The notes under the pieces: generated by a model
Told to the model about the DNA's origin: nothing
Database searches by the model: none
What the model saw: only the letters and a program-made list of their open reading frames with translations
Made by a program: the position numbers and the translations under genes
Assembly: GCA_900316745.1 (NCBI GenBank)
Contig: ONEB01000011.1
Span: 6,105-70,104, forward strand
DNA length: 64,000 nt
DNA from: an uncultured Eubacteriales bacterium
Lineage (GTDB): Bacteria; Bacillota; Clostridia; Oscillospirales; Oscillospiraceae
Direction: 5' to 3'
In this document: one piece after another, positions 8,742-45,929 of the stretch
Numbering within the stretch: position 1 is the first letter of the stretch
Layout of the letters: every line of letters starts with the position of its first letter

Positions 8742-8754
8742 CGTTACACCCTCC

Positions 8755-9249: not shown

Positions 9250-9321
9250 TTGTCATCCTCCGGATCTTTTAGGACCGTTTATAATGCCTTCTGATATCAA
9301 TTCACAAGCGGCTCAGATTTC

Positions 9322-14779: not shown

Positions 14780-14792
14780 GATTATATACTCC

Positions 14793-14978
14793 TCAAAACA
14801 ACATACAGATTCCGACAAGCGCCGCGGATACGACTGGGCACAGCAGAATCATGCCAAAATGAGACTTCCAATTGAAGCCAAACTTGTGAAAGCCCTCGCC
14901 GCCCTCCGTCTCCGGATAGAAATGCTGGTAAAAATACGAATTCGTCAACAGAAAGATCAGAATCCACGTGACGTTATT
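14793..14978 (-). pseudogene. 3' remnant (about 58 codons) of a third family-A membrane protein gene
   Basis: Manual translation WILIFLLTNSYFYQHFYPETEGGEGFHKFGFNWKSHFGMILLCPVVSAALVGICMLF* aligns with the C-terminus of the 10577-11074 protein. An in-frame TAA at 14979-14981 cuts it off, with no start codon; upstream DNA turns AT-rich. Confidence 0.65.
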
Positions 14979-15115
14979 TTACTGTGACACTTGGCTTTCT
15001 ATCTTAGCAAGCGAGAGTTAGACATGGCTAATTCATTATATCTCACATTTCTCGTCGGTTCAAGTTTTTTTGATTCGCAGAGCAGAAATTAGAAATATCT
15101 CTGCGACAGGAACCA

Positions 15116-15811
15116 TTAAGATTCCGGAAGAAAACGGTAGCCCACACCTCGAACTGTTTCAATGTATTTTGGCCGTTCCTTATCATCATCCAGCTTCTTG
15201 CGCAAATATGTAATCACGGGCGTAATATCCCGAGCTTCATCAGCTTCATCAAGCCATACTGCCTCGCGGATCTGATCTTGAGTCAAAACAATTCCTGGGT
15301 TTCTCGCGAAGTATGCCAGTAAGCGGAACTCACGGGGCCGAAGATAGATTTGTGTATTTTCCTTCATCACACGATGACGTTTTGAATCAATGATCAGATC
15401 GCCTCGATATAGCGTAGAGGCTTCAGGATCAAACGCATCATAGCGATCGTAGATAATATATCTGCGCAGCAATGCCATCGCCTGCGAAAAAATGATTCGG
15501 AGATTTGTCGTGGATGGAACACACACATCCGCCCCAACCTCAAGCGTTGACGCAATCATCTCCAACTTTGTCAACACGAGCACTGGAGCGTATGTTATCG
15601 TTCTTATTCTACTGACAAAGCTCTGTGTCTTGTCTGATGATTCATCAAAAACATTCAAGATGATCATACAATAATCATGTCTGTCCAAATGAATCATTGC
15701 TTCATGAAAACTGCTGCATGTCATCAGAGTATATTGATCCATCTCAAAATACCGATTGAAAATCTTAACCATTTCATCCGGTAGGCCAATCGTTAAAATC
15801 TGTTTTCCCAT
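15116..15811 (-). CDS. OmpR/PhoB-family winged-helix regulator with a degenerate receiver domain (orphan atypical response regulator)
   Basis: C-terminal PREFRLLAYFARNPG...ITYLRKKL...VRGVGYRF. The receiver has IILNVF where the canonical regulator in this window has ILLDVM (Asp to Asn), and GADVCVPST instead of GADDYLAKP (Lys missing). Confidence 0.8.
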   Translation of the reverse strand: MGKQILTIGLPDEMVKIFNRYFEMDQYTLMTCSSFHEAMIHLDRHDYCMIILNVFDESSDKTQSFVSRIRTITYAPVLVLTKLEMIASTLEVGADVCVPSTTNLRIIFSQAMALLRRYIIYDRYDAFDPEASTLYRGDLIIDSKRHRVMKENTQIYLRPREFRLLAYFARNPGIVLTQDQIREAVWLDEADEARDITPVITYLRKKLDDDKERPKYIETVRGVGYRFLPES

Positions 15812-15955: not shown

Positions 15956-18900
15956 TTACGACTGTCTGGCGCGGGACATCTCGAATACGGTGTCCGCGAT
16001 GTTCATGGTGCTCTCCCGGTGCGAGACGAGAACGACGGTCTTCTCCCCTGCGCTCTCGCTCAGAGATTGGAGGATCACGCCCTCGTTGAGGGCGTCAAGG
16101 TTGCTGGTCGGCTCATCGAGCAGCATCAGCGGCGCGTCGTGCAGGAAGGCGCGAGCCACGCCGATGCGCTGTTTCTCGCCGCCGGAGAGCGTGTCGCCCA
16201 GCTCCCCGACCGGAGTGTCGTAGCCCTGCGGGAGCGACCGGATGAAGTCATGCACAGCAGCCTTCTTTGCCGCTTCCACGATCTCTTCCCGTGTGGCGTC
16301 GAGCTTGCCGATGGCGATGTTGTTCGCGATCGTGTCCTTGAAGAGCACCGTTTCCTGTGTGACGTAGGATTCCAAATTACGCAGGCAGGCGGTGTTGATC
16401 CGGCGCACATCCGTGCCGGAGAGCGCGACCCTGCCGCCTGTGACGTCCCAGAAGCGCATGAGGAGCTTCAGAAGCGTGGACTTGCCGGAGCCGCTTGGGC
16501 CGTGGATGCCGAGGATCTTTCCCTCCTGGAAGTCGAGCGAGAGGTCGTGCAGGATCTCTTCCCCGCCGTAGGAGAAGGAGACCTGCTCCGCCGCGGCGCC
16601 GGCGAAGGCGACGACCTCGCCGCCGGAGACCTCCTCCACCTCGGGCTCCTCCTCCAAAAGGCGCAGCACGCGCTCGCCGGATGCGAGCGTCTGGTTGAGG
16701 TTATTCGAGAGGCTGCTCAGCGCCACGACCGGGCCGAAGGAACCCATCATCGCGACCGTGACCAGCAGCGCCGTGTGGAAGTCCGCCGCGCCGCTGCGAT
16801 ACGCCGCGAGCATGAAAAACAGCATTCCGATGGAAAACAGCTCAATGAGCAGGTTCGTGACCGCGCGCTGGCTCTGCTCAAAGCGGTTGAGCTCCTTTTG
16901 CTCCTTGCCCATGGCGCGGGAGCGGCGCGTGATCTCGCCCATGCGTTTGGCGCCGTGCCCGTACTGGATGGTCTCGTCCAGACCGCGCAGGGACTCCAGC
17001 ATGAAGCTGTTCATCTCGCCGAAGCACTCCCGGAAGGACATGCCTGCAACGGCGCTGCGGCGTCCGTTCCAGAGCGGGACGATGAGGCCGACCGCAAGAT
17101 AGCCGCAGAGGGCAATCAGCGCGGCGCCGAGGGAACGTGTGCCGATGAAGATCAGCATGATGACCGATACAATCACGGCAATGGCAATGGGAGAAATCGT
17201 GTGCGCGTAGAACACCTCCAGCAGCTCGATGTCCGCCGTGAGAATGGAGATGAGGTCGCCGCGATCCCTGCCCTCCAGCTTTGCCGGGCAGAGCCTGCGC
17301 AGCACGGCAAAGACCTTATGCCGGATGATGGCAAGGAGCTTGAAGGCAATGAAGTGGTTGCAGTACTGCTCGCCGTAATGCAGCAGACCGCGGGCAACGG
17401 CGACGACGATCAGGATCGTGGTGAGCGTTTTGGTGGTCCGCTCGGTCATAACGAGCACAACGCCGTGGCTCGCGAGGATCGTGAGCGAAATGGCACAGAG
17501 ATAACCGACCACGCCGAGGAAGATGGCAAGGAGCATGACAGGCAGCAGTGGTTTCACCAACCCGATAAGTCTGCCCATGATGGCGGCACCGGAGCGGCGC
17601 ACGCCGGGCGTTTTTTCCTTTGCCGCCGTCTTGGCGGTCTGAACCTGCGCGGGCTCTGCCGTCTCTGCCTCCACGCGCTCGGCGTTCTTGGCGGCGTAGG
17701 CCTCGAGCTTCCGCTGCGTTTGGAATAGATCGGCGTATGAGCCGTTTTTCGCGAGCAGCGCCGCGTGGTCTCCCTGCTCGGTGATGGCTCCATCTTCGAG
17801 GAAATAAATCCGGTCGGACGGCACGACGTTCGCGAGGCGGTGGGAGATGAGCAGCACGGTGCGCTCCCTGGCGAGCTTGTGAATGACCTGCATGATGAGC
17901 TCTTCGCTCTCCACATCGATGTTGGACGTGGCCTCGTCGAAGATGTACACCGGCGTGTCGTGCAGCAGCGCGCGGGCGAGCGCCAGACGCTGGCACTGGC
18001 CGCCGGAGAGGTTGCTGCCGCGCTCGGCGATCTCGGTATCCAGTCCGTCCTGCGCCTCGACGAAGCGGCGGAGATTCACCTGCTCCAATGCCGCAAGCAG
18101 CGCAGCGTCGTCCGCATCGGGATTGCCCAGAAGCAGATTGTCCCGCACGGTGCCCTTGAAGATCGTGCTGCTGTGGGTGACGAGGGTGATGTGCCGCATG
18201 AGGCTCTCCTCGTTCAAATCCCGCAGCTCTCTCCCCTGCACGGTGATGCTGCCGGTGTAGCCCTTGTTGCGGCCCATGAGAATGCCCGCGATGGTGCTCT
18301 TGCCGCAGCCGGAGAGGCCGACGAGGGAGGTAAAGCTCCCGGCCGGGAGATCGAGGCTCACGCCGCGCAGCACCGGGTGCTCCTCGGTGTAGGCAAAGCC
18401 GACGTTTTCCAGATGAATGCTGATCGGATCGTCCGTGAGGACCTCCGTCTTCTGCTCCGGCTCCGGGGTATCGAGGAAGGAGAAGATGCGGTCGCTCGCG
18501 GACATGCCGTTCATGGCGATGTGGAAGAACGAGCCGAGAATGCGCAGCGGGATGAAAAACTCGCTGGCCAGCAGAATCGTCATCAGCGCTGCGGTCAGGG
18601 TGATCTTCCCCTGCGCGAACTGCGCGATCGTGACCGCCATGCCGATGGCAGCGCCGCCGTAGGCCATGATGTCCATGACGGAGGTGGAGTTGAGCTGCAT
18701 GGTGAGGACCTTCATCGTCACCTTGCGGAAGGTCTCGGACTCGGCGTCCATGTCCTCGGCCTTTTTCTCGTCCGCCCGGTAGATCTTCAGCGTGGTCATG
18801 CCCTGCAGATTCTCCAGGAAGCTGCTGCCGAGGGAGTGGTAAATATCCAGATACTTGTTGATGAAGCGCTTTGCGATCTTCTGCACAGCCACGATGGACG

Positions 18901-19411
18901 CGGGCAGCAGCGGCACGCAGATGAGCAGCACAACGCTGGCCTTCATGTTTACAAAGGCGAGGATGGCAAAGAGCGTCAGCGGGGCGAGCAGGCTGTAGAA
19001 AAACTGCGGCAGGAAGCGGCCGAAGTAGGTCTCCAGCTGCTCCACGCCCTCGACGGAGAGCTGCGTGAGCTCCGCCGTGGAGACGCGCTCACGATAGGAC
19101 GCGCCGAGGCGCAGGAGCTTGGAATAGAGCTTCTCGCGCAGGGTGCGCTTGACGTCCACGCTCGCGAGATAGCTCATCTTTGCGATGACGCGGTCAAAGA
19201 CGAATTTCAGCACCACGGCGACGCAGAAGACCACGCCGCGGCTGATGAGCATGCTTTGGCTCAGCGCTCCCGCGAGGGCCGAGCAGAGCAGCGTGACCGT
19301 GGCCCAAACGACGGCGACCTGACATAGCAGCGCCAGCCACTGGAACACAACCTGCCACACGATGTATTTCTTCGCGTGGCTCAGGCTCTGGATCAGTCGT
19401 TTTTTGATCAT
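15956..19411 (-). CDS. Fused two-half ABC exporter (TMD-NBD-TMD-NBD), CydD/CydC-like
   Basis: Two Walker A motifs (GLSGCGKST, GPSGSGKST), two signatures (LSGGQCQR, LSGGEKQR), two Walker B motifs (IFDEATS, LLDEPTS), two six-helix hydrophobic regions; 1151 aa. Confidence 0.9.
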   Translation of the reverse strand: MIKKRLIQSLSHAKKYIVWQVVFQWLALLCQVAVVWATVTLLCSALAGALSQSMLISRGVVFCVAVVLKFVFDRVIAKMSYLASVDVKRTLREKLYSKLLRLGASYRERVSTAELTQLSVEGVEQLETYFGRFLPQFFYSLLAPLTLFAILAFVNMKASVVLLICVPLLPASIVAVQKIAKRFINKYLDIYHSLGSSFLENLQGMTTLKIYRADEKKAEDMDAESETFRKVTMKVLTMQLNSTSVMDIMAYGGAAIGMAVTIAQFAQGKITLTAALMTILLASEFFIPLRILGSFFHIAMNGMSASDRIFSFLDTPEPEQKTEVLTDDPISIHLENVGFAYTEEHPVLRGVSLDLPAGSFTSLVGLSGCGKSTIAGILMGRNKGYTGSITVQGRELRDLNEESLMRHITLVTHSSTIFKGTVRDNLLLGNPDADDAALLAALEQVNLRRFVEAQDGLDTEIAERGSNLSGGQCQRLALARALLHDTPVYIFDEATSNIDVESEELIMQVIHKLARERTVLLISHRLANVVPSDRIYFLEDGAITEQGDHAALLAKNGSYADLFQTQRKLEAYAAKNAERVEAETAEPAQVQTAKTAAKEKTPGVRRSGAAIMGRLIGLVKPLLPVMLLAIFLGVVGYLCAISLTILASHGVVLVMTERTTKTLTTILIVVAVARGLLHYGEQYCNHFIAFKLLAIIRHKVFAVLRRLCPAKLEGRDRGDLISILTADIELLEVFYAHTISPIAIAVIVSVIMLIFIGTRSLGAALIALCGYLAVGLIVPLWNGRRSAVAGMSFRECFGEMNSFMLESLRGLDETIQYGHGAKRMGEITRRSRAMGKEQKELNRFEQSQRAVTNLLIELFSIGMLFFMLAAYRSGAADFHTALLVTVAMMGSFGPVVALSSLSNNLNQTLASGERVLRLLEEEPEVEEVSGGEVVAFAGAAAEQVSFSYGGEEILHDLSLDFQEGKILGIHGPSGSGKSTLLKLLMRFWDVTGGRVALSGTDVRRINTACLRNLESYVTQETVLFKDTIANNIAIGKLDATREEIVEAAKKAAVHDFIRSLPQGYDTPVGELGDTLSGGEKQRIGVARAFLHDAPLMLLDEPTSNLDALNEGVILQSLSESAGEKTVVLVSHRESTMNIADTVFEMSRARQS

Positions 19412-19412
19412 A

Positions 19413-20210
19413 TCAATCTTTCCTTTCCGGCGCGGGAATGGTTTTCACAAATCCGAAGAAATAGATCACATGCGCGACCCAAACCACCGCGAGGATGATG
19501 CAGGGCACCCAGATGTCCTTGCGAGCCATGAGAAAGAAGCCCACGCCCATCAGAAGCGTCACCATGGTCACAATGCTGAGCTTGGTTTTCAGGAGCATGC
19601 CTTCCTTTTTGACATAGGATTCCAGATGTTTCTTGTACAGCGAGGTGCCGATGAACCAATGATGCAGCTTTTCCGAGCTCTTTGTAAAGCAGAAAAGCGT
19701 CGCGAGGAAAAACGGCACGGTCGGCAGAATCGGCAGGACGACGCCGATGGTGCCCAGCGCGAGGCACAGGAAGCCCAGCACGATCCAGAAGATCCGAAAG
19801 CGGGATTTTGCTTCGGTCTGCGCCGGGGTCTGTTCGGTTTGTTCGGTCAGATTTTCCATGGGTACCACGTCCTTATTTTGTCTGCGCTGTTCCCTTTTGG
19901 ACTCTATCACGTGAGAAGCCGCCATCACGGGATGATGAAAGATCATCCGCGGGCCGGAAAAGCGCATGACCGCGCGGATCTTTTCGCGCATTTCCGGCTT
20001 GTAGCAATGGACGCGGCAGTTGGAACAAAAGGTCTTCTCTTCCATAAACGGGCAGCGGTCGCTCCGGGATCGGGCATACTGCTCCAGCTCGGCGCACTCA
20101 GGGCAAAGCTCTGTCTTTGTCCCGTGCTGCTTTTTGCAGTAAAGCCGGATCATCAGAGATACGACTTCCTTTTCCTTCTCCCGTTTGGATGTGATCTTCG
20201 CGTCTTCCAT
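19413..20210 (-). CDS. Fusion of a YgbA-like (nitrous-oxide-stimulated-promoter family) Cys-rich domain and a YbaN/DUF454 membrane domain
   Basis: N-terminus MIRLYCKKQHG...CPECAELEQYA...CPFMEEKTFCSNCRVHCYKPEMREKIRAVMRFSGPRM. C-terminus GTIGVVLPILPTVPFFLATLFCFTKSS... Confidence 0.6.
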   Translation of the reverse strand: MEDAKITSKREKEKEVVSLMIRLYCKKQHGTKTELCPECAELEQYARSRSDRCPFMEEKTFCSNCRVHCYKPEMREKIRAVMRFSGPRMIFHHPVMAASHVIESKREQRRQNKDVVPMENLTEQTEQTPAQTEAKSRFRIFWIVLGFLCLALGTIGVVLPILPTVPFFLATLFCFTKSSEKLHHWFIGTSLYKKHLESYVKKEGMLLKTKLSIVTMVTLLMGVGFFLMARKDIWVPCIILAVVWVAHVIYFFGFVKTIPAPERKD

Positions 20211-20211: not shown

Positions 20212-21009
20212 TCAGGCGGTCAGAACGACCTTGCGGCCGTCCACCTCCACGACGTCGAGCCGGATGCCGTAGAGCGCTTCGATGCTCTCGGCGGTGATCG
20301 CATCCTGCGGCTCGCCCTGCATGGAGACCACGCCGTCCTTGAGACCGATCACGGCGTCGGAATAGGTGATGGCCTGGTTGATGTCATGCAGCACCATGAC
20401 GATGGTGATGCCGTATTCCTTGTTCAGCTTGCGGATGAGCTCCAGAATCTCGATCTGGTAGCGAATATCCAGATAGGTCGTCGGCTCATCCAGCAGGAGG
20501 ATCTTCGTATTCTGCGCAAGCGCCATGGCGATCCACACGCGCTGACGCTGGCCGCCGGAGAGACGCCCGACCTCCCGATTACGGAAAGGCACAATGTCCG
20601 TGACCTCCATCGCCCACTCGATGATGCGCTCGTCCTCCTCGGTCTGCGCCTGCATCATCTTCTTATACGGTGTGCGGCCGAAGGACACCAGCTGCTCCAC
20701 GGTCACATCGTCGCTGACGGTGTTGTACTGGTGGACAATGGCGACCTCTCTGGCGAAGTCCTTCAGGGTAAAGTTGCGGATGTTCTTCCCGCGGATGAAA
20801 ATGTCTCCCTTGCGGGCAAAAAGGTTTTTCGTCATGAGCAGAAACAGCGTGGACTTGCCGCAGCCGTTCGCGCCCATGATGGTCGTGATCTTGCCCTCCT
20901 CGATTTTGAGAGAGGCGTCGCGCAGCACCTTGTTTTTTCCGTAGGCAAAGCGCAGGCCGCGCACCTCCATGGCGGGCTTGGGCTTTTTGCTCTGCGTGTT
21001 ATTTGGCAT
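20212..21009 (-). CDS. Iron-complex/haem ABC importer ATPase (FecE/HtsC-like)
   Basis: GANGCGKST, LSGGQRQRVWIAMAL, LLLDEPTTYLD, VLHDIN. Confidence 0.9.
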   Translation of the reverse strand: MPNNTQSKKPKPAMEVRGLRFAYGKNKVLRDASLKIEEGKITTIMGANGCGKSTLFLLMTKNLFARKGDIFIRGKNIRNFTLKDFAREVAIVHQYNTVSDDVTVEQLVSFGRTPYKKMMQAQTEEDERIIEWAMEVTDIVPFRNREVGRLSGGQRQRVWIAMALAQNTKILLLDEPTTYLDIRYQIEILELIRKLNKEYGITIVMVLHDINQAITYSDAVIGLKDGVVSMQGEPQDAITAESIEALYGIRLDVVEVDGRKVVLTA

Positions 21010-22048
21010 ATCGCTTCGACCTCCTCAGAAGCAGAATGAAGAACGGACCGCCGATCACGTTCATGATGATGGAAGCCGAGACCTCATAGGGCGCAGCGAT
21101 GGTTCTGCCGAGGGTATCCGCGAGCAGGAACACGAACGCGCCCAGCAGCATGGAGTACGGCACCAGCTTTTTGTGATCGCTTCCGACGAGGATGCGGCCG
21201 ATGTGCGGCACGATGAGGCCGAGGAAGCTGATGACACCGACCACGGCGGTAGAGATGCTGGCGAGGATCGCCGCGATGATGGAGATGATGATGCGCGAGC
21301 GGTTGACGTTCACGCCGACGCTGCGGGCGGTCTTATCCTCCAGACTCAGGAGGTTGCAGGTGCCGCAGAAGAACACCGACAGGATCAGTCCCAGCGCAGC
21401 ATACGGCAGAAGCGTATACACGTCGTCCCAGGTCTTCATGGTGATGTTGCCGTTGACGATGGAGGCAACGCCCTGCATGTTGCCGCCGTTCATGGAGTTC
21501 AGTGCGCTTGAAAGGCCCGTGAACATGGCGCTCACGGCGACGCCCACGAGGATGATGCGCAGCGGGCTCAGTCCGCCCTTCCACGACAGGCTGTACACCA
21601 GCGCAAAGGCGAGGCAGCCGCCGATGCAGGCGATGATGGGCATGAAGAAAAACAACTCCGGCAGAAACGCCGTGACCGCCACGGCAAAGAAGCTCGCGCC
21701 GCCGGAGATGCCGATCACGCCGGGGTCGGCGAGCGGGTTTTTCAGCACGGCCTGAAACAGCACGCCGGACACCGCAATGGCAGCGCCTGCGAGCATAGAG
21801 ATGAAGATGCGGGGAAAGCGCAGATCGCGGATCGTGTCCACGGTGTCGTTCGGCTCTGAGAACAGGCCGCGCAGCAGCTCGCCGAAGCCCACCTTCAGCG
21901 AGCCGATGTTGATCGCGGCGAAAAACAGCGCCACAAGCAGCACCGCCGTGAGCACAAAGGCCAGCACGGACACGACTGTCTTGCGTTTTTGGCGCGTCAC
22001 ATCCAATGCCTCTGCGGGGATCTCGGTTTTTTCCGGTTTTGTTTTCAT
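20999..22048 (-). CDS. FecCD-family ABC importer permease
   Basis: 349 aa with about 9-10 hydrophobic helices and FecCD-like motifs (RDLRFPRI, GLIVPHIGR). Confidence 0.85.
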   Translation of the reverse strand: MKTKPEKTEIPAEALDVTRQKRKTVVSVLAFVLTAVLLVALFFAAINIGSLKVGFGELLRGLFSEPNDTVDTIRDLRFPRIFISMLAGAAIAVSGVLFQAVLKNPLADPGVIGISGGASFFAVAVTAFLPELFFFMPIIACIGGCLAFALVYSLSWKGGLSPLRIILVGVAVSAMFTGLSSALNSMNGGNMQGVASIVNGNITMKTWDDVYTLLPYAALGLILSVFFCGTCNLLSLEDKTARSVGVNVNRSRIIISIIAAILASISTAVVGVISFLGLIVPHIGRILVGSDHKKLVPYSMLLGAFVFLLADTLGRTIAAPYEVSASIIMNVIGGPFFILLLRRSKRYAK

Positions 22049-22063
22049 CCGAAGCTCCCTCCT

Positions 22064-23170
22064 TTAATTGGCATGGGTCTGCATGCCCGGCAGATCGTCG
22101 TCGTCATAGAGTGTGGAGGCGTTGGAATCCACAGCCTCCTGCGCCGCGTTCTCACTGTTGGCGCGCGCCTTTTCCAGATCCTCTTCACTTTCGGGATACA
22201 GGATCGGCTGCAGCTCTTCGAGCGCGTCGGGATAATTGAACTTCGCGCTCATGCCGAAATTGTCATAGCTCAGATCGTAAACTCTGCCCTCCTGCACGGC
22301 CTTGAAGTGCCGCCAGATGTCGTTCTCGGCAAATTCCTTGTTGAACATGGCGATGATCTGATCCTCCGGCAGCGCGTGGGCGCAGCGGAGGATGATGTCC
22401 GGCTCCTTGGTTTTCATGTCCTCGGTATTCACGGTGAGAAACTCCTGATCCGTGCCGGCATAGACGTTCTCCCCGCCCGCAAGCGCGACGAGGCTGCCGA
22501 CATAGGAGTTTTCCGTGGCAATGATGTAGCTGCCGGGGACGCCCATGAGGATGAGCACCTTCGGGTGCTCCTTGCCCTCATTTCTCTGGCTGTATTCACT
22601 GTAGAAAGCAATGAACTCATCCACAAGCGCCTGCGCCTGCTCCTGCTTGCCGAAGATCTCGCCCAACTCCTGAATGGAGCGGTACATACCCTGCACGCTG
22701 CGCAGGTTCAAAAAAGCCCAGTCGGTATCGATTGCTTCATACTTCGGCTGCAGATCGCTCTGCAGGCTGGAGGGGCTGAGCACCCAGTCGGGGTGCAGGG
22801 ACGCGACGATCTCCATATCCGGGCTCATGGCAAGACCGACAATCGGAAGATCCGCATAGCGCTCCGGGATCTCGGAGACGTTGGACTTGCAGACGCCGAC
22901 GAGCTCGAGCTCGAGCTTGTCGCAGATATCCGCGACGGCGGGCGACGTGGCGATGATACGCGGAGTGCCGCCCATGCTCATGACCTTTGCCTTCGCCGCC
23001 TCCACAGCGGCCCTCTCGGTGGGGTCGGTGATCTCCAGCAGCGTTTCGGCGCGCTGGACGCTTGCGGATTGCTCGTTTTCTTTCTTTCCGCAGGCACAGA
23101 GACTCAGTACCATGACGAGAGACACCAGCGCCGCGACGGTGCGGAAAAACGGCTTATTCTTCATCGTCAT
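22064..23170 (-). CDS. Lipoprotein substrate-binding protein of the iron-complex/haem ABC importer
   Basis: Signal peptide with a lipobox-like LCAC; class III periplasmic-binding-protein-like layout (RIIATSPAVADI...DPDWVL...KEPDIIL). Confidence 0.75.
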   Translation of the reverse strand: MTMKNKPFFRTVAALVSLVMVLSLCACGKKENEQSASVQRAETLLEITDPTERAAVEAAKAKVMSMGGTPRIIATSPAVADICDKLELELVGVCKSNVSEIPERYADLPIVGLAMSPDMEIVASLHPDWVLSPSSLQSDLQPKYEAIDTDWAFLNLRSVQGMYRSIQELGEIFGKQEQAQALVDEFIAFYSEYSQRNEGKEHPKVLILMGVPGSYIIATENSYVGSLVALAGGENVYAGTDQEFLTVNTEDMKTKEPDIILRCAHALPEDQIIAMFNKEFAENDIWRHFKAVQEGRVYDLSYDNFGMSAKFNYPDALEELQPILYPESEEDLEKARANSENAAQEAVDSNASTLYDDDDLPGMQTHAN

Positions 23171-24152
23171 CCAAGCCTCCGCCCCAGCGATACCAGTTTT
23201 TGCGGATATAGATGATGAGTCCCGCCGCGACTGCCATAAGAATGCATCCGGAGATCAGGATCGAAAGCACATTCACGAGGATCTGGCTCCCGACGCCGCC
23301 GGGGGCGGCGGCTGCGGCAGTCTCGTTCTCCGCCGTGGAGAGGCTGAGCCCCTGCGCAGAGGAGAGCGAGGAATCCGTATCCGGCGCGGGGTTTTCGTTC
23401 ACAGGATCGGTGAGCTTGGTCTGGAGCTCCGGCGCGCCCTCTGCCGAGGGAATACCGCCTTCGGTGGAGCCGGAGGCCTTGTTGTTGGAGGGCAGTGTGC
23501 TGTTGCCCGCGCTGACGGTGCCGCTGCCCGCGGAAGTTCCGCCGGACACACCTCCGCTTGCCGCGCCGTTATTCGATGCGGCTCCGCCGTTGTCCGCGGC
23601 GTCCGCCGTGATGAAGGAGGGCGTCATGTCCGTGGAGTTGCCCGCGTTGTAGTTGCTGGGATACATGTACCACACAACGTCGCGGCCCATGGGCTCGACG
23701 TACATGCTGCCGCGCAGGACGCAGCTCTCGTTCGGGACCTCGATGCAGATGTCTGCAGTGGTGCCGTTGGTGTCCGAGCCATAGCCGACAATGCCTGCAG
23801 CGGGGCTGCTCCAGGCGCTGTCACCCACGTTCTGCACCCAGAAGGTATGGCCGGAGGTATAGTCCATGAGGCTCATGCGGATGGTGAGATAATAATGCCC
23901 GTCCGCCGTGACCTCCATGATGCCGGTGTCATAGACACAGCCCTCGACCATGCCCTGACCGGTGGCGTAGGAGCCCTCGCCGCCGCTGTCCTCGATCACG
24001 CCGGAGACCGGGTGACGATAGCAGCGGTTGATCGTGCAGGTATAGACATTGCCGCTGACCGCCTTGGCACTCATACCGACCGCAGCGAACATCGAGACGG
24101 TCAGCGAGAAGCAAAGCAGTAGCATGGCGAGCTTTTTCAGATAGGTTCTCAT
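23154..24152 (-). CDS. Shp-like cell-surface haem-binding protein with C-terminal TM anchor
   Basis: N-terminal domain YTCTINRCYRHPVSGVIEDSGGEGSYATGQGMVEGCVY...GSDTNGTTADICIEVP...RGSMYVEPMGRDVVWYMY closely matches my recollection of Streptococcus pyogenes Shp. This is followed by a low-complexity linker, a TM segment and an acidic tail. Confidence 0.7.
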   Translation of the reverse strand: MRTYLKKLAMLLLCFSLTVSMFAAVGMSAKAVSGNVYTCTINRCYRHPVSGVIEDSGGEGSYATGQGMVEGCVYDTGIMEVTADGHYYLTIRMSLMDYTSGHTFWVQNVGDSAWSSPAAGIVGYGSDTNGTTADICIEVPNESCVLRGSMYVEPMGRDVVWYMYPSNYNAGNSTDMTPSFITADAADNGGAASNNGAASGGVSGGTSAGSGTVSAGNSTLPSNNKASGSTEGGIPSAEGAPELQTKLTDPVNENPAPDTDSSLSSAQGLSLSTAENETAAAAAPGGVGSQILVNVLSILISGCILMAVAAGLIIYIRKNWYRWGGGLDDDEE

Positions 24153-25545: not shown

Positions 25546-26379
25546 TTACAGTATGAATACCGCCACAGCGACCGACTCCGGCATGTGCATGATGCCAACG
25601 TCGCAGCGCATGGAGAGCTTTGCGCTTCCGTGCAGCACCTGTCTACCGTCAGACAGGATATTCTGAAAGCGCATACGGAAGGCCGGGAATGAAAACACGT
25701 CGCCCTCCTGGTCGCAGGGAATGTACATTTTCCCCTCCATGTATTTCACGCTTTCGACCTTGCCCTGCATCTCCAGCCCGCTGACGCGGGATTTGGCGAT
25801 CATGGGCTTGCTCGTCATATAGAACGTACCGAAGCCGTGATGCACCTTGAAAATGGAAGGCTGCTCAAAACCTGCGTTGGCCATGGAAAGAATGTCAGGG
25901 CTTTTGCCGCGGCCATTTGCACGGTAAATAAAAAACGGTACTCTGTACTCCCCGTCCGGCAAATGACGGCAGAGCTCTCCGCCGGAGACCTGTGTGCGAT
26001 CCTGAACGGCAAGCTTTGCCCGATAAAGCCGTGCAGACTGCAGTCTGGCCGGACTGATCTCTTCGGAACCGTAAAGCGTCAGGTAAGAGGCGTCATGCGT
26101 CGCATCCTCATAAGCTGCGCCCTCATTCAGCAGGTGATACAATTGGATTTGAAATCTCCGATCCAACGCACGCGCAGACTCGATTCCCTGTTCTGTCAGA
26201 TGCGGGCTGATATTCGGATCCATTTCGAGCAATCCTTCCGCCGCGAGCGCCTGCATACCTTCGCGGATCTCGCGCTCTTCACACGCAAAGCTTGACGCAA
26301 GCATACGTTCCGAAACATCGTCCGAGCCAGCGTGGAGCAGCTGCAGCAGGATCTTGAATCGCAGCAAATCCTTATTCAC
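25546..26379 (-). CDS. DtxR/MntR-like N-terminal wHTH regulator with an uncharacterised ~150-aa C-terminal domain (paralogue 2)
   Basis: N-terminus ...LTEQGIESARALDRRFQIQLYHLL... fits the DtxR HTH/dimerisation layout. 277 aa. It ends 35 nt upstream of the NEAT gene. Confidence 0.55.
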   Translation of the reverse strand: MNKDLLRFKILLQLLHAGSDDVSERMLASSFACEEREIREGMQALAAEGLLEMDPNISPHLTEQGIESARALDRRFQIQLYHLLNEGAAYEDATHDASYLTLYGSEEISPARLQSARLYRAKLAVQDRTQVSGGELCRHLPDGEYRVPFFIYRANGRGKSPDILSMANAGFEQPSIFKVHHGFGTFYMTSKPMIAKSRVSGLEMQGKVESVKYMEGKMYIPCDQEGDVFSFPAFRMRFQNILSDGRQVLHGSAKLSMRCDVGIMHMPESVAVAVFIL

Positions 26380-27209
26380 AGCGTAAACACCACCACCGCA
26401 GCGGATTCTGGCATATGCGCGATGCCGACGTCGCAGCGCATGGAGAGCCGCACCGACCCGTGCAGCACCTGTCTGCTGTCAGAGAGGATGTTCTGGAAAT
26501 GCACGCCCGCCGCCGGGAAGGAAAACACGTCCCCGTCGCGTTCGCAGGGAACGTACTCCCGCCCGCTGATGTACTTCACGCTTTCGACCTTGCCCTGCAT
26601 CCGCAGTCCGGTGACGCGGGACTTTGCGGTCATGGGCTTGCCGGTCAGGGAAATGGTTCCCACGCCGTTGACCACGCGCAGCTTCGCAGGCTGCTCAAAG
26701 CCCGCGTTCGCCATGGAGAGGATGTCCGAGCTTCTGCCGCGCTCCTTGGTTTTATAAATGAAAAACGGCACGCTGTACTCCCCGTCGGCAAGATGTTTGC
26801 AGAATTCCGCACCTCTGATCTGTTCCTTGCTGCGCAGCGCCAGCTTTGCCCGGTAATACTGATCAGTCTCGCGGCGGGCATAATTGGTCGCGTCAGAGCA
26901 GTACAGCGCCATGAAGTAGGCGTCATGCATCGCATTCTCCTCGTCCACGCCCTCATAGAGCAGATGGTGCAGATTGAGCTGGATCTTTTCGTGATACTCC
27001 TGCGCGGTTTTCAGACCGCGTTCGGTCAGGCGCGGGCGGCGGTTGTCGCTCATATCGACCATGCCCTCGTCCTGCAGCTCATGCATCATGTTGCTAATGT
27101 AGGTCTTTCCGTAGCCGAAGATTCGGGCCAGAGACGTTACAGAGATCGCTTCCTCACTCTGCTCGAGGAATTGAAGCAGAATTTTCATCTTCAGCAGGTC
27201 CTTGTTCAT
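26376..27209 (-). CDS. DtxR/MntR-like N-terminal wHTH regulator with an uncharacterised ~150-aa C-terminal domain (paralogue 1)
   Basis: LARIFGYGKTYISNMMHELQDEGMV...LTERGLKTAQEYHEKIQLNLHHLLYEGVDEENAMHDA. 277 aa. 4-nt overlap with paralogue 2. Confidence 0.55.
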   Translation of the reverse strand: MNKDLLKMKILLQFLEQSEEAISVTSLARIFGYGKTYISNMMHELQDEGMVDMSDNRRPRLTERGLKTAQEYHEKIQLNLHHLLYEGVDEENAMHDAYFMALYCSDATNYARRETDQYYRAKLALRSKEQIRGAEFCKHLADGEYSVPFFIYKTKERGRSSDILSMANAGFEQPAKLRVVNGVGTISLTGKPMTAKSRVTGLRMQGKVESVKYISGREYVPCERDGDVFSFPAAGVHFQNILSDSRQVLHGSVRLSMRCDVGIAHMPESAAVVVFTL

Positions 27210-27513
27210 TACGATCCGCTCCTTTTCGTTTTTCTTTTAAAACGTCCGTAACTTTACCCTCCGCACACCGGATTTTGCTGTGCGGACGATAAAGCTATGG
27301 TCATTTGTGCGATCAGATCGCTCAGTTTATGATTGTTCCTCCCTCAGAAAGCACCGCGTTGGCACGGTGCTTTCCAAAGAAGTGAGGATATTCCCCTTTT
27401 TCATCCCGAGCGGAGGATCACGCTTTAGCAGAAGGAAGGTCTGCTCCGCTCGGGATGACACGCGGGGGATTGCGTGCTTGCCCTTGCCTTCCCCCTCGGG
27501 GGAAGGCTTTTCT

Positions 27514-33182: not shown

Positions 33183-33293
33183 TCTTGAGGAGGGATGGGT
33201 TTTTTGCGGGGTGTTATCCGGACTTTACAAGTGTTAGATATTGCTAACTCTGCGTGCAAACACAAGCAGGCGTCTCGCAGCCTGCGTGGTGCT

Positions 33294-34711: not shown

Positions 34712-34966
34712 TTATGTCAACTTATACAGCAGGCTGCTTTTTCCGCCGTTGAGGCGGTATCGCTGCGTGGTTTCAATGAGCCCCTCTCCGCGGAGATCCT
34801 GGAGCGCGCGGCGGACAGTAGACTGGGACAGCTTCAATTCCTTCGCAATCGTAGGAATAGCAGGCCAACAAATGCCGTCCTGATTCGCGCGCTCCGCGAG
34901 ATAGATATAGACGGAGATTGCCCTATGCGGCAGTTCCGTCTGATACAGGAAGCTATACCGACTCAC
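34712..34966 (-). CDS. Small winged-helix/HTH DNA-binding protein (ICE accessory)
   Basis: ISVYIYLAERANQDGICWPAIPTIAKELKLSQSTVRRALQDLRGEGLI; overlaps the coupling-protein gene end. Confidence 0.55.
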   Translation of the reverse strand: MSRYSFLYQTELPHRAISVYIYLAERANQDGICWPAIPTIAKELKLSQSTVRRALQDLRGEGLIETTQRYRLNGGKSSLLYKLT

Positions 34967-36827
34967 GCTTTGGCTCCTTCCACGCCTGACGCGGCGAGTC
35001 GATAATCACATCACTGTTTCTCTCTTTTCCTGCGGACGTTTGCACCTGCGTTTGGCTCGTCTGCTCCGCCTGCGCCTGAGCGAAGGATTTACCACCTTTC
35101 CCGGTTCTGACCTCAGCGTGTGTTTTCACATCTGGGTATTTCTCCAATATTCCCTCTATGATCTCCTGCTTCTGAGCGTAATGAACGATACGGTTTCCAT
35201 TCTCCGGCACAGAATATGTGTTGTTCTGATCGAACACGATGCCCCACTCGAAAAACAGCTTAAGCTTCACTTTCATCGGATGCGCGCCCGTTTTCATGAC
35301 GATGAACTGCCCTTTCGGAAGACTTTTCAGTTCGTCCGGCGTCATGAGCGGGCGCTCAATCATCTGAAGCGACTGAGACGGGTTATCCTTCCCTCTGGAC
35401 ACAGAACCGGACATGACCGTCCGACTCCCAAGCGCTTTGGAGAGCGTTTCCGCAGAGGAACTGTTTGGAGCAAAGCCGCCGAAGATCGTGAGCTGCGTAT
35501 TATCCACTATGATCTCCGCGCCCTCTTTCCCATAGTTTTTATCGAGCTGGGAAAAGGACTGAATGATCGGAACGATCTGCAGTCGGCGGGAACGAGAGGC
35601 GGAAAACATCATTTCAGCAGACTCGATCTTTGGCAGCGTGCCGAACTCATCGCAGAAGAACACGCAGCGGTTTTCAAGCTGCCCTCCGTTCTCATCCGCA
35701 ACCGCAAGAATCTCCCGGTAGAGCTGCTGGATGATGAGAGAAATCATGAAGAACGTATTCGGGTTTTCCTCCGGCATGATGATGAATATCGCGGATTTCT
35801 CCTTACAAAATTTCTCGGCGTCGATCTCCGTATCGAAGCACAGCAGTTGCTCCAGCTCCGAGTCCAGAAAGGAATTCAGCCGGGAGAGCGCCGTGGACAT
35901 AACCGCAGCCATGCTCTGATCTGACGTATTCAGCGCCGCACCGGCAAACCACTTTGCCTTATGATCATCCGGCAGAAGCTCCATCATCTGCTGAAAATGG
36001 TTCTTCCCCTTCTGCTTCGATGGCGCAAGCAGCTCCTGAATGATCTTGAACACGGACACGATGTGCCGCTCCTCTGGCTTGCAGAATTCCGCAAGCAGAA
36101 GAATGGTTGCGGTGAGAAGTCCCTCCGCCGCATCATAGAAATATGCGTTCTGGCCAAACGAGGAAGCATCTGCACCGGAGAGGATAATCGTCTTGGAAAT
36201 GATCTTGGCGTACTTCTCTGCCTTTGCTTTATAGAGCAGTATCTCCGGATTCTCCAGATAGAGATCCATATATTTATTCACGAGATAGAGCAGATTGTTG
36301 CCATTGGAGCGCGTCGGGTTGCGCAGATCAATGACCGACACATGGTAGCCATAGCCTTTGGCAATATTGCCGTAGTTGCGCATGATGTCTCCCTTTGTAT
36401 CGGTGGACAGAAACGACATTCCGCTGGCACAGGCATACTCAATGCACGGATAGAGCCAGTATGCGGTTTTGCCGACGCCAGCAGCGCCGATCATCAGCGC
36501 ATGGACATCTCCGGTATCCACCAGCGCCATAGTGCGCTTCCCCTCGCAACCGACCACAATGCCCTGCGGCAGCTGATTTCCGCTTGAGTCTGTAGGTTTC
36601 GCTCCTCTTGCCGCCTGCTGTCGCCAGCGCTCCGGGGTAAACAGAATGCGCCGGTAAAGCTTCTGGATTTCTCCTCGCGTCGCCCAACGGGCAGTACCGT
36701 GCTGTCCGTCACCCACGGTGCGGCTCTTGATGCGGTCCAGGTTATACAGATGCGTGAGCATGGAGACCACGCCGATGAAAGCGAACATCACAACGCCGAT
36801 GATAATCAGAGTTGTAAGTCCTGACAC
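34953..36827 (-). CDS. Type IV coupling protein (VirD4/TraG family)
   Basis: N-terminal TM segment, Walker A GAAGVGKTAY, Walker B-like CVFFCDEFG, TraG/VirD4-like C-terminal region. Confidence 0.9.
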   Translation of the reverse strand: MSGLTTLIIIGVVMFAFIGVVSMLTHLYNLDRIKSRTVGDGQHGTARWATRGEIQKLYRRILFTPERWRQQAARGAKPTDSSGNQLPQGIVVGCEGKRTMALVDTGDVHALMIGAAGVGKTAYWLYPCIEYACASGMSFLSTDTKGDIMRNYGNIAKGYGYHVSVIDLRNPTRSNGNNLLYLVNKYMDLYLENPEILLYKAKAEKYAKIISKTIILSGADASSFGQNAYFYDAAEGLLTATILLLAEFCKPEERHIVSVFKIIQELLAPSKQKGKNHFQQMMELLPDDHKAKWFAGAALNTSDQSMAAVMSTALSRLNSFLDSELEQLLCFDTEIDAEKFCKEKSAIFIIMPEENPNTFFMISLIIQQLYREILAVADENGGQLENRCVFFCDEFGTLPKIESAEMMFSASRSRRLQIVPIIQSFSQLDKNYGKEGAEIIVDNTQLTIFGGFAPNSSSAETLSKALGSRTVMSGSVSRGKDNPSQSLQMIERPLMTPDELKSLPKGQFIVMKTGAHPMKVKLKLFFEWGIVFDQNNTYSVPENGNRIVHYAQKQEIIEGILEKYPDVKTHAEVRTGKGGKSFAQAQAEQTSQTQVQTSAGKERNSDVIIDSPRQAWKEPKRESV

Positions 36828-37708
36828 ATCGCTTCCTCCTCTCCTGAAAACAGAAGATCCTCGTTCCAGTCCTTATGCGTTGGAACGAGGATTTCACTTT
36901 GTATGCCCATTGTACTGAGCTTTTCCATCATTCTCGCCGCGGCATCATGCCCGGCTTTATCGTTATCCAGACACAGGAACACTTTTTGCAGGCCGGGGTC
37001 ATCCTTCAGCATCTGCATCAGGACACGATCAGAAACTGAGCAAGCAGCAGCATAGCTTTGACTCTGCCAGTTCTCCGGATGCAATGTGATAAAGGATAGC
37101 ATATCAATCGGCGCCTCAAATAAATAGAGCCGACCGCTTTCTCCATGCCAATGGAAGCTGTACTCCGGGATGCTGCCCGCAGCGCTGCCCTTGAATGTGC
37201 TTTCGCTTCCTGTCCCTCGCAGGCTGGCGTGGCGCGGAATGCAGCCCGTGTCATATCCAACGAACACCGCGTTGTGGTAATCGGCAGATTCATAGAGCAT
37301 CTTTTCATGTACAAATGCATTGATGACGTCCCGATCGATCCCGCGCTGGTGCATCAGATATGCGTACACTCGACTCATGCGCTCATTACGAGGCGGCAGT
37401 TGGAATGCTGATGGTTCTTTTTCTGATCGCTCAATGTCTGCGATAGAATTCCCGAGCAGGAGCCGCACCGCCTCCGGGTAGCTCTTGTGGAAGAAACGAC
37501 GCACAAAGGAGATCGCATCTCCTCCCTCCTGTTGATAATGGTGATACCACAGGTTTCCACGGAGCGTCACCTTATCTGGACCGTCGCCCCAGACGTATTC
37601 TCTCCCGGAGCGCTTGACCGGCTCGCCCTGCGACCGGAGCAGATCAATCAGGTCTGTCTCTCGCGCCTGTCGCTTTTCTTCCTCTGTAAATGGGATGTAT
37701 TTTGCCAA
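36806..37708 (-). CDS. DUF3991/Toprim-domain protein (primase-like ICE protein)
   Basis: N-terminal LRGNLWYHHYQQEGGDAISFV; C-terminal Toprim-like LYLFEAPIDMLS...VFLCLDNDKAGHDAA. Confidence 0.7.
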   Translation of the reverse strand: MAKYIPFTEEEKRQARETDLIDLLRSQGEPVKRSGREYVWGDGPDKVTLRGNLWYHHYQQEGGDAISFVRRFFHKSYPEAVRLLLGNSIADIERSEKEPSAFQLPPRNERMSRVYAYLMHQRGIDRDVINAFVHEKMLYESADYHNAVFVGYDTGCIPRHASLRGTGSESTFKGSAAGSIPEYSFHWHGESGRLYLFEAPIDMLSFITLHPENWQSQSYAAACSVSDRVLMQMLKDDPGLQKVFLCLDNDKAGHDAAARMMEKLSTMGIQSEILVPTHKDWNEDLLFSGEEEAMCQDLQL

Positions 37709-37720
37709 TGATCTTCCCTC

Positions 37721-39121
37721 CTATTGTTTCAATCCCTGCGCCTGCTTTTTCTCATTGATGGTGCGCTGCTGCTTTCGATCAATACGGCCTTGTCGCCCAC
37801 GCTCATCCTGCATCCGCTGCTGAATCAGTTTGCTCGTGTGGTAGAGCAGGCGAATCACGCTGCCGCTGACATCAACTGTTGGAGCTGCCAAGGGAGCAGA
37901 CGATTCGCCTACAATTGGTCGTGCAGACACAGATTGTTCTGCGGTCTGCTTTACAGGTGGTGCATCATCGGTATGATCGTCCTGCTCGGCTCCAACTTGT
38001 GTGATGCCCAAAACGATCTTCATTGCCTCCTGGATAACAGCGTTTCGCACGGATTTGAATTCCCTGTTTTCAGAAAGCGGTACCCGCTCCGGCAGCTCAT
38101 CTGTATAAACTTTGATCGTCTCTTCCTTTTGCGTGTACCAGAGATCATACAGAGAAGCGATCCTTGGGTCCTCAGAAAGTCTCCGAACCACAGCGTCAAC
38201 CAGATCCTTCACTTCCGCTTTTAGATAGCCATATACCTTTTGCCCTTTCGTGCGGGACAGCCGTTCCGCAAGCTCCCGAAGCATTTGTTCCAGCACTGGA
38301 TCAGTCACTTCCCCCTCATTGATCTTCTCGACGATCTCTTCTGCCAGTTCGCGGCTGCGAAGGCGAATATCATCGCGCGCCTCAGTCTGCTTCTGATATA
38401 CCGAAATCAAATCCTGAGAAAAGATTTCTCTTCCCAAGGAAGCGCGCAAAGCCGCAATGCCCTGCTGAGACAGATAGCCCTCGCTTGGATCTGAAGAGTA
38501 AACGATCATGTGGACGTGTGGATGATGTCCTTCATTATGAAAAGCCGCATACCACTTCAGATGGCTTATTGGAATGTGAAATTGCATAGCCAGCTCATGA
38601 TTCTTCGTCTGTAGCAGTTCCCTCCAGCTTCGGCCGGAGTTATATCCAAGCCGCTCTGCATCCTCTCGCCGAAGCGAGAGGATTGCTGTCCATACGTTGC
38701 CGGTATAGGCGTTCATCTCTTTTGACACTTGATCGAGCTGCACAGGAACGCCTGCATCGGAAAATAAGCCATGAGTGCCCAGGCGTTCTGCTCTGGGACG
38801 CAGCGCGATATAGTCCGCATAGGTTTTTTGATCCAGTATGGATGCTGCATTCTCCTCCAACGCACAAGACAGGAATTCAGATGCATTCCTCATATTCGGT
38901 TGCGAAAGATAATCATCATACTCCAACAATTCTCTGCTCTCAGGAAAGTCTTTGAGCAATTTTTGAATCATCTGTTTCTGCTTCACGGTCGCATCTGCAA
39001 GCCCCTGTGTGTCGTTGATGGGATCAACTCCCTCGCGGGTGGCTATGTATTTTGCATAGCCACCCACGCCGGTGCGTGCACCTGGCTTCAAGTATTTGAA
39101 CTTCGTCACCAGCCGCGCCAT
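37721..39121 (-). CDS. Relaxase/mobilisation nuclease (MOBP-like histidine triad)
   Basis: N-terminal YAKYIATREG (candidate catalytic Tyr region) and HNEGHHPHVHMIV, which fits H-x-D/E-x-x-x-P-H-x-H. Confidence 0.8.
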   Translation of the reverse strand: MARLVTKFKYLKPGARTGVGGYAKYIATREGVDPINDTQGLADATVKQKQMIQKLLKDFPESRELLEYDDYLSQPNMRNASEFLSCALEENAASILDQKTYADYIALRPRAERLGTHGLFSDAGVPVQLDQVSKEMNAYTGNVWTAILSLRREDAERLGYNSGRSWRELLQTKNHELAMQFHIPISHLKWYAAFHNEGHHPHVHMIVYSSDPSEGYLSQQGIAALRASLGREIFSQDLISVYQKQTEARDDIRLRSRELAEEIVEKINEGEVTDPVLEQMLRELAERLSRTKGQKVYGYLKAEVKDLVDAVVRRLSEDPRIASLYDLWYTQKEETIKVYTDELPERVPLSENREFKSVRNAVIQEAMKIVLGITQVGAEQDDHTDDAPPVKQTAEQSVSARPIVGESSAPLAAPTVDVSGSVIRLLYHTSKLIQQRMQDERGRQGRIDRKQQRTINEKKQAQGLKQ

Positions 39122-39124
39122 AGC

Positions 39125-39535
39125 TTAGCCTCCGTGCTGCCACTCCAGCGCATCTTCATATCTGAACGAGCCGTTCAGTCTTTTGACCTCCTGCACGCAC
39201 TGCCCGCGCAGGCGTTCCATGGAGACGGGATCAAGGTTGTGATCCGCTGCAATCAGATTCATCAGGATCGCAAGCTCTACTGTCAGCTTAAACAGTATTC
39301 GGTTTTGGCGGTTATCACTCGCCTCAGCAATGCCTTGCATCGTAGAGAGAAACATGTGCGGAAAATAATTTGCGGGATCTCCCGCTGTGAGATAACCGAC
39401 GTAGAATCGGACCGCTTTCTCAATGAACTCCGATCTACTGCGGCAGTCATCACCTCGGTAGAGCTCATTAATTTTTACCAATGTTTCCGGGTGAAGCCAT
39501 GTAGCAAACTTCTGTTTATTCTTCGGTACTGCCAT
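39125..39535 (-). CDS. Relaxosome accessory protein (ribbon-helix-helix / MobC-like)
   Basis: Lies directly upstream of the relaxase. ...RSRSEFIEKAVRFYVGYL is an RHH-like segment. ATG at 39535 follows GGAGG; the track ORF is extended to 39553. Confidence 0.55.
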   Translation of the reverse strand: MAVPKNKQKFATWLHPETLVKINELYRGDDCRSRSEFIEKAVRFYVGYLTAGDPANYFPHMFLSTMQGIAEASDNRQNRILFKLTVELAILMNLIAADHNLDPVSMERLRGQCVQEVKRLNGSFRYEDALEWQHGG

Positions 39536-39553
39536 TTTTCCTCCTGTAACCAC

Positions 39554-40573: not shown

Positions 40574-40588
40574 TGGTTTTTCCTTTCC

Positions 40589-41501: not shown

Positions 41502-41506
41502 GCTCT

Positions 41507-44259: not shown

Positions 44260-44278
44260 CGGTTTCCTCCTTTCCGAT

Positions 44279-45922: not shown

Positions 45923-45929
45923 GTCCTCC

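Follow-up and report, generated by a model that had tools for sequence, protein, structure and literature searches.

What does a pair of regulators sense when it stands at the head of a haem-uptake operon, shares its fold with metal-dependent repressors and lacks their metal site? The question is raised by two adjacent genes, here called A and B, on contig ONEB01000011.1 (assembly GCA_900316745.1) of an uncultured Eubacteriales bacterium of the Oscillospiraceae. The 64,000 nt between positions 6,105 and 70,104 of this contig were analysed and are referred to as the window. Judged by their sequences, A and B are members of an uncharacterised family of regulators. The explanation that accounts best for our observations, to which we assign a probability of about 0.55, is that the family comprises cytoplasmic one-component haem-sensing repressors in which an MntR/DtxR core is joined to a NEAT-like sensor domain; both haem binding and DNA binding are predicted.

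The N-terminal half is an MntR/DtxR scaffold without its metal site

The initial annotation described the N-termini of A and B as being of the DtxR/MntR type, and profile matches as well as the predicted fold, a winged helix followed by a dimerisation core, bear this out. A alone matches E. coli MntR (PDB 2h09) with E=4e-5. An N-terminal profile built from 12 family sequences finds in the PDB the same structure (7e-15), 5zr4 (4e-9), B. subtilis MntR (1e-7) and the group of IdeR, DtxR, SloR and ScaR (~1e-5 to 1e-6). The AlphaFold2 model, built on 58 family members, has a mean predicted local distance difference test score (pLDDT) of 94.3 and a predicted template modelling score (pTM) of 0.79; in Foldseek its N-terminal part aligns with B. 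subtilis MntR at a template modelling score, normalised to the target (TM(target)), of 0.76-0.78 and a root-mean-square deviation of ~3 Å. On single sequences, PF01325 and PF02742 remain under their gathering scores, and the NCBIfam MntR model reaches 38-49 bits vs a cut-off of 153.

The DtxR metal-ligand positions are not conserved. Residues H77, E99, E102 and H103 of MntR stand opposite M/I, L/Y, A and L, and the positions matching MntR D8 and E11 are occupied by K/Q/R and I/V/Y, with no acidic residue. By this alignment the binuclear metal site that defines sensing in MntR and DtxR is gone in the A/B family. Because the ligand positions are not conserved, metal sensing by the N-terminal domain is unlikely.

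The C-terminal half resembles a NEAT domain

For the C-terminal half, which had been reported to match no domain, the picture has changed: structure prediction and profile searches, proposed at the time as a check, identify a divergent NEAT-like domain, through a sub-threshold Pfam match, a family profile and Foldseek. The Pfam NEAT model PF05031 matches eight of eight close family members at E<=1. The family profile matches the NEAT chains 4myp, 3sik and 4h8p (structures of Hbp2-N2, IsdX1 and IsdX2-N5) with E of ~2e-5 to 1e-4, and the best Foldseek matches of both models are IsdX1, Hbp2-N2 and IsdX2-N5, each at a probability of 1.0. The modelled secondary structure is that of an eight-stranded β-sandwich with a lip helix (166-170) and a hairpin of β7 (246-259) and β8 (269-276). 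In the Pfam and PDB searches the C-terminal half matched NEAT domains only, and neither FeoA nor SH3. A special kinship to the surface NEAT domains encoded in the window itself was considered and rejected: hhalign matched the first half only, at a probability of 55-74%, so that the C-terminal domain is no closer to them than to canonical NEAT domains.

Motifs of the lip and of the β7-β8 loop, of the kind that typifies a ligand pocket, are strongly conserved. S165, M166, N168, F171, Y213 and the HMPES motif are nearly invariant among 83 regulator copies from the fetched loci, and the two methionines M166 and M266 tend to occur together (in a broader set of 114 members, both are present in 65, neither in 29 and one only in 20). 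In NEAT1 of Shr, haem is ligated by Met390, which follows the propionate-binding Ser389, and by Met475; Shr NEAT2 and Shp likewise use two methionines (PMC12796733). NEAT domains of the 'clostridial group' have no YxxxY at all and carry a conserved Met in an extended β7-β8 loop (PMC4143258). Shr and this group are examples of NEAT domains that bind haem although the canonical motifs are missing.

Neither A nor B contains a signal peptide or hydrophobic leader, an LPXTG motif or an SLH domain, and the N-terminus is the DNA-binding domain. Since signal peptide and anchor are absent and the domain is fused to a DNA-binding part, the NEAT-like domain is cytoplasmic.

The family is linked to haem genes

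An exhaustive profile search retrieved 1222 proteins at E<=1e-3; the stricter limit of E<=1e-30 leaves at least 110 clusters, mostly of 255-300 amino acids (aa) and full length. An impression of extreme rarity, which a word-indexed search with its 7 clusters had suggested, was dropped after this result. No Pfam or NCBIfam model reaches its cut-off for the A/B family, and the public labels of its members are 'hypothetical protein', 'MarR family', 'Mn-dependent DtxR family' and, in UniRef, 'Iron Transport-associated domain-containing protein'. Our literature search returned no paper on NEAT-HTH (helix-turn-helix) or NEAT-DtxR fusions.

A scan of one genome per species, with an alignment of 8 sequences as query, yielded 80 loci, mostly from gut Clostridia (Lachnospiraceae, Oscillospiraceae, Ruminococcus and Acutalibacteraceae). 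Cultured carriers among them belong to Faecalicatena, Diplocloster, Lachnospira, Brotonthovivens, Pseudoflavonifractor and Merdimmobilis. When homologues of the window's proteins were mapped onto these loci, 72 were informative, with at least 2.5 kb of downstream sequence. In 61 of the 72 the regulator lies directly 5' of, and on the same strand as, a NEAT-Shp-IsdE-FecCD-ATPase operon and/or genes for CydD/CydC and YgbA_NO/DUF454, and the link persists down to ~30% identity. An association with haem genes in other genomes, put forward as a check of the initial annotation, is thereby supported. Export of haem is the function now ascribed to CydDC (PMC10374445).

The window has both modules. The operon of NEAT, Shp and ATP-binding cassette (ABC) transporter genes that had been noted 3' of the second regulator gene is indeed present, and its first gene begins 35 nt after B. 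Genes A and B, the importer, the YgbA_NO/DUF454 fusion and the fused CydD-CydC form a single unbroken array on the same strand, with short gaps or none (Table 1).

Some features of the related loci stand beside this pattern. YgbA_NO, a 'nitrous oxide-stimulated promoter' family protein, is fused to or encoded next to DUF454 in the window and in most of them, and almost always accompanies CydDC near the regulators. In four loci, short canonical MntR-like genes (127-130 aa) close the importer operon, beside the NEAT-fused regulator; they may resemble the ancestor of the NEAT-fused family. Directly after CydDC in the window lies a gene (15116-15811), present in the related locus L087 as well, for a 231-aa protein whose Pfam match is to the Trans_reg_C DNA-binding domain only; Pfam gave no match to a receiver domain at E<=0.001.

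A palindrome is a candidate operator

A palindrome search that covered the DNA upstream of the regulator genes and the intergenic regions downstream of them revealed the sequence GTTAG-N6-CTAAC, with the consensus RGTTAGY-N4-RCTAACY. Of the 80 regulator genes, 46 have it on their 5' side; among the intergenic regions downstream, 39 of 57 contain it. The 1.36 Mb of loci contain 197 exact copies; when the half-site was permuted and the arrangement kept, each of the 29 controls occurred 0-5 times, which makes the enrichment ~40-fold or more. The box has a median distance of 45-65 nt to the start codons of the genes for the regulator, NEAT proteins and CydDC. Counted from the start of the box, hexamers similar to -35 elements are most frequent at -40 and those similar to -10 elements at -20 to -15, which places the box across the transcription start in many loci, the position expected of a repressor. 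Other copies follow a hairpin and a T-run. In their recognition helix, the members that have boxes agree in K35, S/T39 and R40.

The DtxR box is TTAGGTTAGCCTAACCTAA. From the autoregulatory position, the DtxR-like half-site and the shared K35, S/T39 and R40 of members with boxes, we infer that the family binds GTTAG-N6-CTAAC, which makes this palindrome the candidate operator. Besides one exact copy (Table 1), the window contains a copy with one mismatch, GTTAGACATGGCTAAT, at 15017-15032, between the gene of the 231-aa response-regulator-like protein and an α/β-hydrolase gene (13871-14818). The chance expectation for a box with up to one mismatch is 0.57 per window.

The pair is old, and B has lost the family's DNA-contact residues

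The two 277-codon open reading frames with a 4-nt overlap had been correctly placed and described by the initial annotation, and both are on the minus strand. The gap-free alignment of their proteins shows 56% identity (E=5e-115). The 4 nt that the genes share, GTGA, hold both the stop codon of A and the start codon of B, which suggests that translation of B is coupled to that of A, and the GTG start of B (VNKDLL/VNRDLL) is kept in the related loci L003 and L087. Paired copies occur only in the window's clade, that is, in the window, L003-L006 and L087.

The 3' halves of the two genes had been noted to be more alike at the nucleotide level, and they are (73% identity vs 57% for the 5' halves). 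The conclusion drawn from this, a relatively recent tandem duplication, does not hold: A and B differ by 1.6 synonymous substitutions per synonymous site (dS) in the part for the N-terminal domain and by 0.95 in that for the C-terminal domain, and both copies are present in three lineages (the window, L003 and L087). By these distances the A/B duplication is old; it is also specific to this one clade. The C-terminal dS of 0.95 also led us to reject recent duplication or gene conversion as the cause of the similar 3' halves; in the window their similarity therefore comes mainly from stronger constraint on the protein.

The ratio of nonsynonymous to synonymous rates (dN/dS) is ~0.2 for A and for B, which indicates purifying selection on the two genes. 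Against its orthologues B gives 0.19-0.24, and for this reason is not a decaying copy. The recognition helix of B carries the changes K35E, S39R and R40E, and in the wing R57, R58 and R60 are replaced by I, S and H, so that the DNA-contact residues of the family are gone. Residues 1-65 of B have a net charge of -6 vs a family range of -3 to +7, and all NEAT-like motifs of B are intact. The lost contact residues and the acidic DNA-binding domain fit a partner that does not bind DNA better than a second DNA specificity.

The pair has recombined between lineages. Comparison of 25546-27300 of the window with L003:9910-11664 reveals a mosaic: identity is 97-100% in the 91-nt leader of A and in gene B, and gene A between them has a dS of ~1.0. 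The A genes of L003 and L087 are 96-97% identical, and their B genes differ by 10-20%. In an alignment, the A-type protein P0003 and the B-type protein P0004 (the B of L087) hardly differ in their C-terminal halves, beyond about residue 120, which suggests that the NEAT-like half was exchanged between the paralogues in some lineage.

Proposed mechanism and alternatives

In the mechanism that we propose, hydrophobic residues replace the metal site, and the NEAT-like β-sandwich would take over sensing by means of haem. The haem ligands would come from the Ser165-Met166 lip and the His265-Met266 loop, as in the Met-ligated NEAT domains of Shr and Shp. Dimers would bind RGTTAGY-N4-RCTAACY, which in many loci starts just after a σ70-type -10 element, a position that implies repression. 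Targets would be the regulator's own gene, the NEAT-Shp-IsdE import operon and the CydDC/YgbA export operon. The haem-free protein would repress and haem would release it, whereby uptake and CydDC would be induced together when haem is available. This sign is a guess. It is prompted by the hydrophobic residues at the metal-bridge positions, which suggest that the core is always competent to bind DNA, and by the shared control of importer and CydDC exporter, which would be sensible if haem induces both. B would bind haem but not DNA and, produced together with A, would serve as the other subunit of a heterodimer or as a buffer; it is probably a partner of A and not a second DNA-binding regulator.

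Several observations weigh against this explanation. The match of PF05031 to A (E=5.6e-6, 27.2 bits) is under the gathering score of 32.8 and covers model positions 2-72 of 119. Sequence similarity to NEAT domains is limited to the first half of the domain, lip included, and agreement with the NEAT fold is moderate (TM(target) 0.52-0.59). Where canonical NEAT domains have the SxxxxY lip, the family has the motif I-S-M-A-N-x-G-F-x-H-P, with the serine kept as Ser165 and the tyrosine replaced by the invariant Gly170. YxxxY is absent from the C-terminal domain; HMPES (His265-Met266-Pro-Glu-Ser) stands before β8, in the β7-β8 loop. As for DNA binding, the attribution of the box to the family is a matter of co-occurrence, and no canonical box is found within 2 mismatches in the leader of A or in the 35-nt gap after B. 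A itself keeps K35 and S39 and has N40 where the family has R40. Finally, precedent in the DtxR family would argue for the opposite sign, as there the ligand-bound form binds DNA.

This last point leads to the strongest alternative, in which haem is a co-repressor: the haem-bound dimer would bind the same operator and shut off uptake when haem is sufficient, in the manner of DtxR or MtsR, with haem in place of Fe or Mn. When metal-replete, MtsR is a repressor of the shr-shp-sia haem operon (PMC6593403), the promoter position of the box suits a repressor, and autoregulation with feedback on an importer is common. On the other hand, the haem exporter CydDC (PMC10374445) is encoded in the same array or carries the same box, and its repression at high haem would be counter-productive; the hydrophobic metal-bridge positions, too, suggest a core that is permanently competent for DNA binding. 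We regard haem as a co-repressor as unlikely, if the most serious competitor.

Less probable again, and in our view improbable, is that the NEAT-like fold senses a ligand other than haem, such as a metal bound by Cys137, His250, His265 and Glu268, or another tetrapyrrole; a relocated metal site would have a counterpart in the ancillary site to which the SH3-like domain of DtxR contributes. These four residues are highly conserved in the regulator copies of the loci, the canonical tyrosine ligands of NEAT domains are absent, and the NEAT match is sub-threshold. However, many members have Q in place of H250, and C137 is variable in the wider set; the best-conserved candidate ligands, which co-vary, are the two methionines, and Met is a poor ligand for Fe2+ or Mn2+. 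The neighbourhood, moreover, is specifically one of haem genes (IsdE, Shp, NEAT, CydDC) and not of general iron or manganese transport. That the C-terminal domain is merely a structural or oligomerisation module of ligand-independent regulators, with B a redundant duplicate heading for loss, would agree with the missing DNA-contact residues of B, but is very improbable given the strong conservation of the pocket-type lip and loop motifs across 83 copies, the dN/dS of B, its 96-99% identity between two lineages whose A genes differ by ~25%, and its conserved, translationally coupled start.

A further and more novel reading is advanced tentatively and rated somewhat below even odds. The domain would be the first intracellular one of NEAT type, a surface haem-relay module recruited as the sensor of a DtxR scaffold, where direct sensing of haem would have taken the place of metal sensing. 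The regulon, widespread in gut Clostridia, would comprise NEAT-Shp-IsdE import and CydDC export and have an operator of its own, and the pair found in the window's clade would be obligate, with one subunit that reads DNA and one that is DNA-blind and binds haem.

Flanking DNA and the mobile element

The leader of A contains an inverted repeat, TCCGCACA-N11-TGTGCGGA (27260-27286), that is unique in the window. Its role as a shared operator was rejected, as there is no second copy in the window and the copy in L087 has a mismatch and a 1-nt insertion. Three hairpins rich in guanine and cytosine (GC) lie at 27340-27510, between A and the large NEAT/SLH gene upstream of it: one at 27486-27507, one with a 14-bp stem CATCCCGAGCGGAG/CTCCGCTCGGGATG, and one formed by GAAAGCACCG/CGGTGCTTTC. 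Rfam gave no match to a riboswitch or other known RNA in these intergenic hairpins. The large NEAT/SLH gene itself is a compositional mosaic, with ~58% GC in its 3' part (27.5-30 kb), similar to the rest of the haem locus, and ~45% in its 5' part (30-33 kb). Its counterpart in L003 encodes a different SLH protein of 1318 aa.

A conjugative element carries the haem locus as cargo; the genes of this element are found at 1985-3526 and 34953-50937. They encode a serine recombinase, a type IV coupling protein, a Toprim/DUF3991 protein, a MobL relaxase and a CHAP hydrolase, and further a VirB4-like ATPase, TrbL and a 1218-aa adhesin with TQ/SpaA domains. The same genes for the coupling protein, an HTH protein and YpsA border the locus in L003 and L006. 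L003, L004 and L005 contain inserted toxin-antitoxin pairs (ParE/PhD and HepT/MNT; L003:3635-4193 and 8700-9844), which adjoin the conserved box and gene A; the window has none at those places. Location on a conjugative element means that haem uptake and its regulator can spread together horizontally.

Table 1 Positions of the genes and sites discussed in the text, in window coordinates unless a related locus is named.
Feature	Position	Strand	Remarks
Sole exact box in the window	33233..33248		224 nt 5' of the ATG of the gene for the 1831-aa NEAT/SLH protein, just past a hairpin and T-rich stretch; boxes of many other loci also follow a hairpin
Surface protein, 1831 aa	27514..33009	minus	Three NEAT domains and SLH repeats; upstream of A, same strand
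Leader of A, 91 nt	27210..27300	minus	Identical in window and L003, nearly identical in L087
Gene A, 277 aa	26376..27209	minus	ATG start; reading frame read from the sequence
A, MntR/DtxR-like DNA-binding and dimerisation part	26820-27209		Residues 1-130
A, NEAT-like part	26379-26819		Residues 131-277
A, Ser165-Met166 codons	26712-26717	minus	Candidate haem ligands
A, His265-Met266 codons	26412..26417	minus	Candidate haem ligands, in HMPES
GTGA overlap	26376..26379	minus	Stop of A and GTG start of B; read from the sequence
Gene B, 277 aa	25546..26379	minus	GTG start; architecture as in A
NEAT-domain surface protein, 453 aa	24149..25510	minus	First gene after B
Shp-type haem-binding protein	23154..24152	minus	PF11545, E=5.8e-55
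IsdE-type binding protein	22064-23170	minus	TIGR03659, 388 bits vs cut-off 299; part of haem ABC importer 20212..23170
FecCD permease	20999-22048	minus	Pfam FecCD; haem ABC importer
ATPase	20212-21009	minus	Pfam ABC_tran; haem ABC importer
YgbA_NO/DUF454 fusion protein	19413-20210	minus	Pfam
Fused CydD-CydC ABC exporter	15956-19411	minus	TIGR02857 CydD 673 bits, TIGR02868 CydC 539 bits, both over cut-offs
Short MntR-like gene	L061:14888-15268		Keeps EDYLKTIY and DAC-MEH metal-ligand motifs
Short MntR-like gene	L066:19617-20006		Keeps EDYLKTIY and DAC-MEH metal-ligand motifs
Short MntR-like gene	L067:19643-20032		Keeps EDYLKTIY and DAC-MEH metal-ligand motifs
Short MntR-like gene	L078:19370-19750		Keeps EDYLKTIY and DAC-MEH metal-ligand motifs

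Significance and comparison with known systems

Both parts of the A/B proteins are of known kinds; what is new is their combination, a DtxR-family regulator with a NEAT domain, and its cellular location, neither of which is described in the literature searched. There, NEAT domains are extracellular modules of Gram-positive bacteria for the capture and relay of haem, and a cytoplasmic, DNA-binding copy would, if true, constitute a new class of haem sensor and an example of a metalloregulator scaffold that changes its effector by a domain swap. The family is common in Clostridia of the human and animal gut (Lachnospiraceae, Oscillospiraceae, Ruminococcus), in which haem acquisition and its control are almost unstudied. 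The predicted operator, the regulon and the candidate ligand residues are all open to testing in cultured isolates, for example Faecalicatena contorta, Diplocloster species and Lachnospira intestinalis.

Like MntR of B. subtilis and E. coli and like DtxR and IdeR, the A/B proteins have a winged helix-turn-helix followed by dimerisation helices. The candidate operator is palindromic, and its half-sites GTTAG and CTAAC resemble the DtxR box. In contrast to MntR and DtxR, the metal ligands are replaced, a NEAT-like domain of 147 aa is appended, and the half-sites are separated by 6 nt and not by 1. SloR and ScaR are among the structural matches of the family. MtsR, SloR and ScaR have kept their metal sites, with which they sense Fe or Mn, and end in a FeoA/SH3-like domain; the A/B family has lost the metal site and ends in a NEAT-like domain. 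Common to MtsR and the A/B proteins is that a DtxR-type regulator with an extra C-terminal domain is tied to a Shp/NEAT/ABC haem-uptake operon (PMC6593403).

With the surface NEAT domains the C-terminal half shares the β-sandwich and the lip, to whose SxxxxY the sequence Ser-Met-x-Asn-x-x-Phe aligns, and with the clostridial NEAT domains and Shr it shares a methionine in the extended β7-β8 loop. In contrast to surface NEAT domains, the NEAT-like domain of A and B is cytoplasmic and fused to a DNA-binding part, the lip tyrosine is a glycine, HMPES stands in for YxxxY, and the match is under the Pfam threshold. In a census of 343 NEAT domains, the words regulator, transcription and cytoplasm are nowhere used (PMC4143258).

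The proposed task of the family, the adjustment of import and export to the haem level in cytoplasm or membrane, is also that of the known haem regulators, which include HrtR and FhtR of the TetR type, PefR of the MarR type, the two-component systems HssRS, ChrSA and HrrSA, and Irr. The A/B family has no homology to any of these beyond a generic winged helix, and differs from them in both of its parts, the NEAT-like sensor and the DtxR/MntR scaffold.

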